This document shows, piece by piece, positions 37,240 to 39,231 of a stretch of 64,000 bases of DNA. Location: contig CAZIYE010000001.1 of assembly GCA_964543385.1 (NCBI GenBank), positions 356,933 through 420,932 on the forward strand, written 5' to 3'. The first letter of the stretch is position 1; each line of letters starts with the position of its first letter. The stretch is from an uncultured Candidatus Saccharibacteria bacterium (GTDB taxonomy: Bacteria > Patescibacteriota > UBA1384 > XYA2-FULL-43-10 > 1-14-0-10-43-13). Made by a program: the position numbers and the translations under genes. The notes below the pieces were generated by a model. It searched no databases and was not told the DNA's origin. It worked only from the letters and a program-made list of their open reading frames with translations.

Positions 37240-37447
37240 CACATTTAAAAAAACCAGGCCGCCACTTACTTGATTTCGGCGGCAGCCTGGAGATGGGAAG
37301 GCGGGACCATTCCTCGTCTTCATCGGAGACGAACTCGTGTTCGTCGCTACGGCCGAGGGGCCGTGTCTGTTGCCCTTGCTTCGGGCAATCGGCGGTATCC
37401 ATGCAGGAGCACGGACACAGATCATCATCGCGGCCACAGTCGGCCAT
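37190..37447 (-). CDS. hypothetical Cys-rich small protein (GC-rich cassette antisense between atpG and atpD)
   Basis: AAGGGGG SD 8 nt upstream of ATG at 37447; MADCGRDDDLCPCSCMDTADCPKQ… then acidic stretch; ORF reads through the terminator hairpin into antisense atpG, so its true 3' end is uncertain. Could instead be a non-coding RNA. Confidence 0.3.
   Translation of the reverse strand: MADCGRDDDLCPCSCMDTADCPKQGQQTRPLGRSDEHEFVSDEDEEWSRLPISRLPPKSSKWRPGFFKCATSLLPLRQISQQFHE
37246..37290 (-). terminator. intrinsic terminator on minus strand just after atpG stop
   Basis: Minus strand: ccaggctgccgcc-gaaatcaagtaagt-ggcggcctgg followed by TTTTTTTT. Confidence 0.6.
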
Positions 37448-37471
37448 AGTGGTGTCCCCCTTTTCGAAACG

Positions 37472-37500
37472 TTGTCCGGAAACCGGATGGGAGATACAAT
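37472..37500 (+). promoter_or_regulatory. near-consensus sigma70 promoter restarting transcription before atpD (TTGTCC-17-TACAAT)
   Basis: Hexamers and spacing read directly; followed by AAGGAG SD and the atpD ATG at 37536. Confidence 0.5.
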
Positions 37501-37535
37501 AAAATAAATTAGTTAATATGTCAATAAGGAGATAG

Positions 37536-38900
37536 ATGCAAACAGGAAAAATCACACAGGTTATCGGCGCAGTTATTGATGCCAAATTTGAGGATAAACT
37601 TCCAAAAATTTATGATGCGTTGGAATGTAAATTAAACGATAAGCGTCTCGTCTTTGAAGTTCAGCAACACTTAGATGACAAAACCGTCCGAGCTGTAGCA
37701 ATGAGCTCGACAGACGGCTTACAACGAGGAACAGAACTAGTCAACACGGAAAAGCCGATCTCTGTTCCTGTGGGGGCAGAATCACTAGGCCGAATGTTTA
37801 ATGTTATCGGCGAACCGATTGATGGCAAAGAAGCACCAAAAAATAAGACTTTTTATCCTATTCATAGACCATCTCCTGAATTCTCGGAGCAAAACACCAA
37901 GACCGAGATTTTCGAAACAGGAATTAAAGTTATCGATCTGATCGCTCCAATCACAAAAGGTGGTAAAGTAGGCCTCTTTGGCGGTGCTGGTGTTGGCAAA
38001 ACCGTTTTAATCACTGAACTAATTCGCAATATTGCCTCCGAACATTCAGGCACATCAGTTTTCGCCGGCGTAGGAGAAAGAACTCGTGAAGGTAATGATC
38101 TCTATAACGAGATGAAAGAGTCAGGTGTTTTAGATAAGACTGCTCTCGTTTTTGGTCAGATGAATGAACCCCCTGGAGCTCGTATGCGTGTTGCTCTGTC
38201 AGGACTTGCCCAAGCTGAATATTTCCGAGACGAGGGCAAAGACGTGCTTTTATTTATTGACAATATCTTTCGTTTTACCCAAGCTGGTTCAGAAGTATCT
38301 ACTCTCCTCGGCCGTATGCCTTCAGCAGTAGGTTATCAGCCTACCCTTGCTGAGGAAATGGGCAACCTTCAGGAAAGAATTACCTCTACAAAGAAGGGTT
38401 CTATCACCTCCGTTCAAGCTGTCTATGTACCTGCTGATGATCTAACTGATCCAGCACCAGCCACTACCTTTGCCCACTTGGATTCAACTATCGTGCTAGA
38501 GAGAAGTCTGGCTGAACTAGGTATTTATCCTGCTGTTGATCCCCTTTCTTCTACGTCAGCTATTCTTGACCCTAACGTTGTTGGTATCGAGCACTATACG
38601 GTCGCTCGTGAAGTTCAGAGGTTACTACAAAGATATAAAGATCTTCAAGACATCATCGCAATTCTTGGCATGGAAGAGCTCTCCGATGATGATAAACTTA
38701 CAGTCTCACGAGCACGAAAAATTCAACGTTTCTTATCACAGCCTTTCCATGTTGCCGAAGTATTCTCCGGCATCCCTGGTGTCTACGTGACGTTAAAAGA
38801 CACGATTGCCGGCTTTAAAGAAATCATCGACGGTAAGCATGATAACAAAGCAGAAACAGAGTTTTATATGAAAGGAAATATCTCAGAAGTAGGAAAATAG
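37536..38900 (+). CDS. atpD: F1 ATP synthase subunit beta
   Basis: 454 aa; Walker [11 protein letters not shown]; …[25 protein letters not shown]…. Confidence 0.95.
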
Positions 38901-38904
38901 GAAT

Positions 38905-38950
38905 CCCATCCAAAGTGTATCGGCCGAAACCGATCGACCCTAAGGATGGG
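38905..38950. other. nested hairpin immediately after atpD stop
   Basis: cccatcc-…atcgg-ccgaaa-ccgat…-ggatggg; on the minus strand it follows the stop of the small membrane ORF and precedes TTCCTATTTTCC. Confidence 0.4.
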
Positions 38951-38976
38951 CGGAATTGTATGGCTGTTCCCCTTCA

Positions 38977-39186
38977 TTACTTCTTCTTTGGCCCTTTTGG
39001 CGGAACCGAAGGAAGATGTATCTTCGAGAAGCATCCAAGCCGTGCCATGATGATGATAACCATCACTATTACGGCTACTGCCGGAGTAATTGCGCAGGCA
39101 AGTCCCATCTTTAGATAGATCAAGATAGCCTCCGCTATCGCGGCCATGCCAAGCGTAATCAGCAAGTCTCTGAGAATCGGATCCAT
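38977..39186 (-). CDS. hypothetical 69-aa two-TM membrane peptide (GC-rich cassette antisense between atpD and atpC)
   Basis: GGGGGGTGA SD 6 nt upstream of ATG at 39186; MDPILRDLLITLGMAAIAEAILIYLKMGLACAITPAVAVIVMVIIIMA… basic C-terminus PKGPKKK. Confidence 0.4.
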   Translation of the reverse strand: MDPILRDLLITLGMAAIAEAILIYLKMGLACAITPAVAVIVMVIIIMARLGCFSKIHLPSVPPKGPKKK

Positions 39187-39231
39187 GGTTTCACCCCCCA
39201 TTCGTTTCCAGTAAAGTAGTGTCAACCTTGC

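Follow-up and report, generated by a model that had tools for sequence, protein, structure and literature searches.

The window analysed here is a 64,000-nucleotide (nt) stretch of DNA whose plus strand carries an atp operon (an atpZ-like gene, atpB, atpE, atpF, atpH, atpA, atpG, atpD and atpC), and this report concerns two spacers in the F1 half of that operon, atpG-atpD (gap 1) and atpD-atpC (gap 2). Both spacers are probably filled by compact minus-strand cassettes consisting of a promoter, a Shine-Dalgarno (SD) sequence, an open reading frame (ORF) and a unidirectional terminator, which would make the F1 half of the operon a "noncontiguous operon", with cassette 1 laterally acquired and since deprived of its stop codon. 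Judged by its conservation, the micro-gene of gap 1 is a real gene and belongs to a small, previously unnamed family. Candidatus Berkelbacteria is the name attached to AtpG homologues at 70-73% identity, and the host appears from its sequence to be a Berkelbacteria-like member of the Patescibacteria.

Gap 1 measures 296 nt and gap 2 measures 364 nt; an earlier reading of the letters, the original prediction, had given about 300 nt, which stands, and about 330 nt, which is slightly short. A survey of genome and metagenome collections, covering 141 atpG-atpD and 116 atpD-atpC loci, yielded median spacers of 44 and 38.5 nt and placed the window at about the 88th and 93rd percentiles (some 12% and 7% of the surveyed loci are as long). 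Long atp spacers are unusual overall, yet recurrent in Patescibacteria. The G+C content (GC) of the whole window is 39.2%, and the core of gap 1 (37254-37495) rises to 63-65%, making it one of few such islands, while gap 2 reaches only 46-51%; the claim that both gaps are sharply G+C-rich was thus right for the first and overstated for the second. Just three spacers between co-directional genes in the window are clearly GC-enriched (0.53, 0.46 and 0.56, vs 39%), and all three, namely both atp gaps and 60474-60767, hold an antisense ORF. The features originally described were found in place when the sequence was inspected. Both junctions are 100% identical in Logan contigs of SRR12261223 and SRR12261225 and in a contig of JGI 3300045131, and this exact recurrence in three independent assemblies excludes a one-off assembly chimera. 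Gene callers placed no gene in either gap on these identical contigs.

The evidence for cassette 1 begins with its ORF. A minus-strand frame with an SD had been reported from 37447 down to 37190, and both are present; a word-indexed homologue search with this frame (ORF1) was empty and Pfam gave no hit. An exhaustive HMMER search of 1.84 billion representative proteins returned P0121 (78% identity, E 3.6e-12) and P0122 (56%, E 6.7e-8), both of 45 amino acids (aa), and a third 45-aa homologue, P0123, belongs to the P0122 cluster. On every carrier contig (L172, L173-L175, one 41.6-kb JGI/NCBI contig and five ENA contigs, including L176 and L177) the gene lies antisense between atpG and atpD in a spacer of 288-297 nt. 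Identical antisense synteny is found on at least 11 contigs besides the window, drawn from several studies, and among the homologues recovered by the exhaustive search the family has no occurrence away from atpG/atpD. The product carries four invariant Cys (C4, C11, C13 and C21) in the core C-x6-C-x-C-x7-C-P, followed by an acidic tail that is retained across the family alignment. The ratio of nonsynonymous to synonymous change (dN/dS, by Nei-Gojobori) is 0.42 between the window and L172, 0.14-0.20 between the window and L173, 0.28-0.35 between L172 and L173 and 0.04 between L173 and L176. These values, well below 1, denote purifying selection at the protein level, which rules out a purely non-coding reading of gap 1. 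The view that the Cys-rich ORF is not noise is therefore borne out: it represents a genuine protein family, selected and occupying the same position in other lineages.

The expression signals of cassette 1 are conserved together with the frame. DNA alignments retain the promoter TTGACA-17-TAT(T/A)(G/A)T, the SD, the 45-codon frame and the terminator with its T-run. The antisense promoter, which the original prediction did not include, has its -35 hexamer 1 nt away from the atpD SD and a predicted transcription start site (TSS) at about 37489, leaving a predicted leader of some 40 nt upstream of the SD and the ATG (37447); it is kept as TTGACA-17-TATTAT in L172 and as TTGACA-17-TATAAT in L173, L176 and L177. 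Counterparts of the SD are GGAAGGGGGA in L172 and GAGGAGG in L173. The predicted minus-strand terminator adjoining the atpG stop likewise stood up: as in intrinsic terminators generally, a GC-rich hairpin (37254-37290) is followed by a run of seven U. Its folding energy is -23.2 kcal/mol (z -4.5) and its T-run borders on the atpG stop region; the structure is conserved in L172, L173 and L176, the L173 stem showing a G-C to A-U double change in addition to wobble changes. Three of the six frames are open across gap 1, and the minus strand of the gap, taken as the whole minus-strand transcript, folds at z -5.0. The micro-gene keeps a GC at third codon positions (GC3) of 0.56-0.70 in all variants, despite AT-rich hosts and near-saturated synonymous sites in some pairs, and some hairpins within its coding region keep pairing across variants; an RNA-level constraint besides coding is possible.

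The window copy of this gene differs from its homologues at one decisive position. Where the homologues stop (TAG in L172 and L173, TAA in L176 and L177), the window has TGG, and in its 85-aa ORF the 46 native codons are followed by 39 codons of read-through that are not conserved and have no counterpart in the homologues. The 85-aa ORF, which had been taken as the gene itself, is accordingly best read from the alignments as a stop-loss artefact of the 45-aa family. As first described, that ORF and the terminator were also mutually inconsistent, because the ORF runs through the hairpin. With the terminator inside a stopless frame, terminated transcripts would be non-stop mRNAs. Products of non-stop mRNAs are tagged and degraded through trans-translation, and such degradation would be expected here. 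The window copy of cassette 1 is thus probably impaired or decaying, and the long ORF in this genome should be read with caution, as the reflection of a lost stop codon and not as a native gene.

The four invariant Cys suggest metal or redox chemistry, and the known families that were compared do not account for them. ORF1 and its homologues have no significant match to any family in Pfam, NCBIfam or PHROGs, and a PDB profile search with the family was empty; the resemblance to a metallothionein-like, metal-rich small protein that had been suggested finds no support in these four resources. Zinc ribbons and rubredoxins carry two CxxC/CPxC knuckles, a pattern other than the one conserved here, for which neither Pfam nor NCBIfam returned a hit. 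SCIFF (ranthipeptide) precursors, likewise about 45 aa long, have six Cys clustered at the C-terminus and a radical-SAM maturase encoded next to them; the present family has four invariant Cys, all N-terminal, and no maturase gene nearby. Rfam, searched at gathering and at E<=10 thresholds, returned nothing in either gap. Searches with blastn and tblastn against phage and plasmid collections gave nothing for the cassettes, and IMG/VR scans using the family alignment or the terminator sequence were likewise empty.

Comparison with relatives indicates how cassette 1 reached the window lineage. The nearest relatives are cassette-free at atpG/atpD: L166 (AtpG 89% identical) has a spacer of 89 nt, L163 (88%) an AT-rich spacer of 151 nt and the P0004 contig (85%) a spacer of 57 nt. 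The comparison with related genomes for empty sites thus marks the gap as an insertion. The carriers L172 and L173 are more distant from the window, with AtpG 59-64% and AtpD 91-92% identical. The proportion of synonymous differences (pS) between the window and L172 is 0.76 in atpD, where it is saturated, vs 0.25 in the micro-gene. In a sliding-window comparison, L172 and L173 are closest to each other over atpG and atpD (0.8-0.95 identity) with the window distant (0.55-0.8), and over 37240-37535 it is the window and L172 that are closest (0.75-0.97), L172-L173 dropping to 0.44-0.85. This discordance, confined to the spacer, indicates lateral exchange of cassette 1 between the window lineage and an L172-like lineage, perhaps by homologous recombination through the conserved gene ends; strong synonymous-site constraint is a less likely explanation. 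Exchange also explains the GC contrast of cassette 1 with its host. A comparison of insert and host composition, as originally proposed, bears this contrast out, with a GC3 of 0.67 in the micro-gene vs 0.35 in window atpD (0.49 in L172 atpD). Relatives with and without the cassette share samples: SRR12261225 has the strains of the window and of L173, and JGI 3300059473 contains both the cassette-free P0004 type and the cassette-bearing P0122 type. A cassette that is missing in the nearest relatives, laterally exchanged and without its stop here can hardly be called stably domesticated, as it had been. Neither gap shows terminal inverted repeats, target duplications or a transposase, and no second copy exists in the window; a repeat or miniature inverted-repeat transposable element was ruled out on these grounds.

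A promoter-like site facing atpD had been read as a new restart promoter that compensates for convergent transcription. The site is present, and its relation to the antisense promoter changes its meaning. The two -10 hexamers overlap (TACAAT at 37495-37500 on the plus strand, TATTGT at 37501-37496 on the minus strand), with the -7T and -11A positions pairing reciprocally, and the predicted TSSs, 37507 (+) and 37489 (-), lie 18 bp apart. Symmetric bidirectional promoters of the 18-bp class have been described with this geometry (Warman et al. 2021; PMC10268837; also PMC12825309); the likeness consists of the overlapping reciprocal -10s and the spacing. Here it is a sequence prediction, the specificity of this organism's sigma factors being unstudied, and the plus-strand -35 is conserved only in the window and L172. 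The L172 version is the better match (TTGTCC-17-TATAAT). A start toward atpD is plausible, as a by-product of the antisense gene's own promoter and not as a separate compensatory element; the site itself thus stands, and the compensating role assigned to it gives way to that of a mirror half.

Cassette 2 repeats the design with a different ORF, and ORF2, its SD and the hairpin all occur as originally described. ORF2 encodes 69 aa with two hydrophobic segments and a grand average of hydropathy (GRAVY) of 1.11. An ORF this long and hydrophobic arose in none of 5000 shuffles of the window spacer and in 4 of 5000 shuffles of the spacer of the relative L164. The promoter-like TTGAAA-17-TATAAA was read directly from the sequence, since the promoter scan excludes -10s ending in A and hence omits it. 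The hairpin reaches -22.8 kcal/mol on the minus strand vs -18.8 kcal/mol on the plus strand, its motif had no chance match in 100 shuffles, and its U-run, UAUUUUCC, is weaker than that of cassette 1; it is probably the ORF2 terminator.

Gap 2, too, is an insertion, holding an antisense unit where L163 and the P0004 contig have 14-15 nt between atpD and atpC and L172 has 2 nt; the L166 contig stops short of this junction. In L164 (AtpG 82% identical) the spacer is 438 nt long, with a homologous hairpin at 9019-9067 that has a different inner stem (-30.8 kcal/mol, z -6.3) and an identical TTGAAA-17-TATAAA abutting atpC, which is not found in the empty-site L163. Between these, L164 carries a collinear 75-aa ORF (9087-9314, minus strand) with GGGAGGT as its SD; the product has two hydrophobic segments as well as a Pro/Arg tail. 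The ends of the two spacers align (75% over 69 nt and 86% over 35 nt) and the ORF interiors are unalignable; a global alignment of the two products gives a z of 3.5 over shuffles, in keeping with collinear architecture. A word-indexed homologue search with ORF2 was empty, and neither it nor the L164 ORF has a match in Pfam, NCBIfam or PHROGs. On this comparison ORF2 is probably a real, fast-evolving gene for a small membrane protein, held with lower confidence than the gene of cassette 1. L164 also shows, at 8925-9020, the atpD 3' end GGTAGG(G/A)AAATA(G/A) twice around an AT-rich segment of about 70 nt between the atpD stop and the hairpin, a pattern suggestive of a target duplication or of a minor secondary insertion.

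Table 1. Features of the atp region, in window coordinates; minus-strand features are written 5' to 3' where direction is given.
Feature	Position	Strand	Details
atpZ-like gene	32408-32713	+	PF09527
atpG (F1 gamma), upstream flank of cassette 1	36328-37239	+	ORF list; PF00231 on identical Logan gene
Intrinsic terminator, cassette 1	37290-37247	-	hairpin 37254-37290 and T7 run 37253-37247
Read-through extension, non-conserved	37306-37190	-	crosses terminator; antisense into atpG 3' end; TGA 37192-37190
Lost stop codon (codon 47 = TGG)	37309-37307	-	DNA alignments; same in three independent assemblies
Conserved micro-gene, 46 codons, MADCGRDDDLCPCSCMDTADCPKQGQQTRPLGRSDEHEFVSDEDEE	37447-37310	-	HMMER homologues, antisense synteny, dN/dS
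SD AAAGGGGGA, cassette 1 micro-gene	37463-37455	-	7 nt upstream of ATG
Promoter-like TTGTCC-17-TACAAT	37472-37500	+	9/12 match; predicted TSS ~37507
Antisense promoter TTGACA-17-TATTGT, cassette 1	37524-37496	-	10/12; best promoter match in 4-kb region
atpD (F1 beta)	37536-38900	+	SD AAGGAG at 37526-37531
Nested hairpin CCCATCC...GGATGGG, then AUUCCUAUUUUCC on minus strand	38905-38950	-	26 nt past ORF2; 4 nt past atpD stop
ORF2, 69 aa	39186-38977	-	two hydrophobic segments; basic, Pro-rich tail (…PSVPPKGPKKK)
SD GGGGGGTGA, ORF2	39199-39191	-	4 nt upstream of ATG
Promoter-like TTGAAA-17-TATAAA, ORF2	39264-39236	-	-35 directly abuts atpC ATG; read from sequence
atpC (F1 epsilon), downstream flank of cassette 2	39265-39684	+	translation; PF02823 on identical Logan gene

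Genes of opposite strand are thus interspersed in one functional operon at both atpG/atpD and atpD/atpC, the arrangement known as a noncontiguous operon. In Staphylococcus aureus, such an operon comprises menE-menC-MW1733-ytkD-MW1731 (Saenz-Lahoya et al. 2019, reviewed in PMC7154746), and polymerase collision and RNase III processing make the transcripts reciprocally regulated (PMC7154746). The likeness lies in the read-through atp mRNA, which would be fully complementary to the mRNA of the embedded gene. The present case differs in being known from its sequence, with co-transcription predicted only; each spacer is taken up entirely by an embedded micro-gene, of 45 codons in one case and 69 in the other; a single operon has such genes at two junctions, with a third junction occupied in relatives; it is the atp operon of a bacterium of the candidate phyla radiation (CPR); and one cassette has a predicted bidirectional promoter that could restart the operon. 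The 45-aa family would accordingly be a new small-protein family within a known architectural class.

The proposed mechanism follows from this arrangement. Neither hairpin has a T-run on its plus-strand side, and atp transcription should therefore be able to pass: the terminators would act on the minus strand only, the atp transcript would read through, and the resulting mRNA would be fully complementary to the mRNAs of both micro-genes. RNA polymerase collision and processing of double-stranded RNA would then couple the expression of each micro-gene reciprocally to that of the atp genes downstream, and the symmetric -10 of cassette 1 might additionally start transcription toward atpD. The antisense orientation is possibly what selection leaves, a sense-oriented terminator being polar on atpD and atpC.

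Several observations weigh against this reading. Matches of the 9/12 type, such as the plus-strand promoter-like site, number 13 in the region vs 8.4+/-2.8 expected in shuffles and are not above chance, and in L173 and L176 the -10 symmetry is retained while the plus-strand -35 is not conserved. AlphaFold2, run on a 4-sequence alignment of the 45-aa family, gave a pLDDT of 56 with no secondary structure, hence no confident fold. ORF2 has a single syntenic counterpart, that of L164, to which BLASTP finds no residue-level similarity (E 19), and gene callers passed over it on identical contigs. The patchy distribution of the micro-gene and its missing stop in the window copy also fit dispensable cargo.

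That last reading is the most serious competitor, although clearly the less probable one. It holds that the cassettes are selfish or neutral ORFan genes settled in tolerant atp spacers with no link to the ATP synthase, only antisense copies surviving because a sense terminator would be polar. The varied contents of relatives' atp spacers (a GIY-YIG ORF, a 23S_rRNA_IVP gene, antisense zinc ribbons, palindromic repeats and an unrelated 87-aa gene) speak for it, as do the patchy presence with empty sites in the closest relatives, the lateral exchange of cassette 1 and the loss of its stop. Purifying selection on the 45-aa protein, the conservation of its expression signals and the restriction of the family to one locus stand against it, together with the lack of a transposase, terminal repeats or a second copy in the window. 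Other "filler" genes of Patescibacteria spacers (GIY-YIG/UPF0213, 23S rRNA-IVP four-helix and Zn-ribbon mini-proteins) are likewise small, patchy and found in the same atp spacers; the 45-aa family differs from them in having no Pfam or NCBIfam model, in keeping to one locus, in being always antisense and in having a conserved promoter and terminator.

It is improbable that cassette 2 is a unit like a type I toxin-antitoxin system, in which ORF2 would damage membranes and its mRNA would be held in check by atp read-through RNA or by an unrecognised small RNA (sRNA). ORF2 resembles type I toxins (Hok, Ldr, TisB, Fst, TxpA) and class II holins in being short and strongly hydrophobic with a charged C-terminal tail; its distribution is patchy, and a sense atp transcript would overlap it fully if read-through occurs. 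It differs in its 69 aa and two transmembrane (TM) segments, typical type I toxins having fewer than 60 aa and one TM segment, and it comes with no cognate sRNA, lysis cassette, phage context or profile match. The promoter scan found no dedicated antisense sRNA promoter on the plus strand of gap 2, which also lacks an Rfam hit. The neighbours are atpD and atpC, and ORF2 has neither a significant PHROGs hit nor a match in phage genomes; the proposed hok/holin-like nature has no backing in Pfam, NCBIfam, PHROGs or PDB. In the relative L083, moreover, atpD/atpC holds a translationally coupled two-TM ORF in sense orientation, with the appearance of an ordinary membrane subunit and not of a toxin.

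About equally doubtful is the proposal that the antisense micro-proteins (the 45-aa peptide, the two-TM peptide and the double Zn-ribbon of relatives) are dedicated modulators or accessory subunits of the F1Fo complex, expressed reciprocally to the F1 genes; in these energy-limited symbionts they might, for example, sense redox state or metals and restrain ATP hydrolysis. Small regulators of F-type ATP synthases include cyanobacterial AtpTheta/atpT, alpha-proteobacterial zeta and mitochondrial IF1, and are of similar size, AtpTheta having about 45-50 aa (PMC9317440, PMC9241938). The micro-gene is exclusively associated with atp genes, a lead only, and by analogy an ATP synthase-related role is conceivable; its product shows no similarity in Pfam, NCBIfam or PDB to AtpTheta, zeta, IF1 or the epsilon C-terminal domain. 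AtpTheta is not rich in Cys and, to our knowledge, its gene does not lie antisense within the operon.

It is very unlikely that the GC-rich segments are non-coding structured RNAs or hairpins stabilising the atp mRNA, with the ORFs as by-products of GC-rich sequence. The strong folding of the gap 1 minus strand (z -5.0), the hairpins that keep pairing in the coding region, the high GC3 in AT-rich hosts and the three open frames of six would fit such RNAs. The frame, start, length and stop conserved in gap 1 with a dN/dS well below 1 do not, nor does the absence of an Rfam family, and in gap 2 two lineages both have a hydrophobic frame far beyond chance although their DNA cannot otherwise be aligned. 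Mis-assembly, whether as a chimera or through foreign reads inserted into the operon, can be set aside despite the composition contrast with the flanks, the gaps being identical in the independent assemblies and homologous cassettes occupying the same site in other lineages.

The reading of two antisense cassettes in a noncontiguous operon matters for annotation as well as for physiology. Annotation of metagenome-assembled genomes systematically overlooks small proteins and antisense genes, and the present micro-protein family, which neither word-indexed searches nor any family library can see, is nevertheless conserved, selected and tied to one atp junction, and appears to pass between co-occurring lineages as a module the size of a spacer. 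If the logic of the noncontiguous operon applies, it would offer a streamlined CPR genome a simple way to couple the expression of ATP synthase subunits to another signal. The interest would be higher if a link to ATP synthase regulation were established.

Relatives carry further small genes in their atp spacers. A double zinc-ribbon micro-gene lies antisense at atpA/atpG in L169 (5680-5895, minus strand) and in L173 (2643-2822, plus strand in the locus and antisense to atp), encoding proteins of 71 and 59 aa that are 67% identical, and a longer, weakly related version of 132 aa occurs in L164 (5558-5956, minus strand); the window, with an atpA-atpG gap of 16 nt, does not have this gene. At atpG/atpD, L164 has an antisense 87-aa gene at the site of cassette 1; a relationship with ORF1 was considered and rejected, the sequences being unrelated. 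The same locus shows palindromes like repetitive extragenic palindromic (REP) elements (…CCTCTCCTT…AAGGAGAGG…) in two different atp spacers (5340-5450 and 7410-7540), and in L085 a GIY-YIG ORF flanked by palindromic repeats occupies the atpG-atpD spacer (6035-6550). L169 holds a 23S_rRNA_IVP gene in an atp spacer, and L174 a sense 115-aa ORF at atpD/atpC. L083, a relative with 73% AtpG identity, carries at atpD/atpC a sense, AT-rich, two-TM ORF of 62 aa (7474-7662, plus strand), whose ATG overlaps the atpD stop and whose end lies 4 nt upstream of atpC; translationally coupled in this way, it looks like an integrated small membrane subunit.

Other parts of the window show comparable features. 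A third antisense cassette (60474-60767, 56% GC) lies between mnmA (59319-60473) and folD (60768-61610), both on the minus strand, and shares the design of both atp cassettes. Its plus-strand ORF (60555-60722; MINPCLRAQL…) encodes a Cys-rich product of 55 aa behind an SD GGAGGA, and its terminator (60735-60761; -20.7 kcal/mol, z -5.6) has a T-run abutting the folD stop. The ORF belongs to no Pfam, NCBIfam or PHROGs family, and its product is not on record. Around the atp operon, a 168-aa ORF (31571-32077, minus strand) between a carbonic-anhydrase-like gene and atpZ is not in the P0004 contig, and a yggT-like gene with a 197-aa ORF between atpC and glmS (39685-40671, minus strand) is in neither the P0004 contig nor L163; by this comparison the atp neighbourhood of the window strain has gained several small genes.

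Near the end of the window, a Phd/YefM antitoxin gene (63285-63494; PF02604, E 7.6e-10) adjoins about four copies of the 12-nt tandem repeat aacaagtaatat (63515-63560), past which a minus-strand gene of about 66% GC, which has a terminator of its own and no Pfam hit, runs off the end at 64000. The GC island at 50740-50795 is no insertion: it is the glycine-rich C-terminal tail (…SGSGGGGFSGGGGGGGGGGGW) of a 580-aa ORF (49053-50795) and is followed by a terminator. The largest GC-rich stretch (12238-14443, 57-66% GC) covers housekeeping-type genes, namely a pyrF-like orotidine monophosphate (OMP) decarboxylase gene (13025-13852), a cdsA-like gene (14084-14938) and a 279-aa ORF without a Pfam hit, and may have been laterally acquired.

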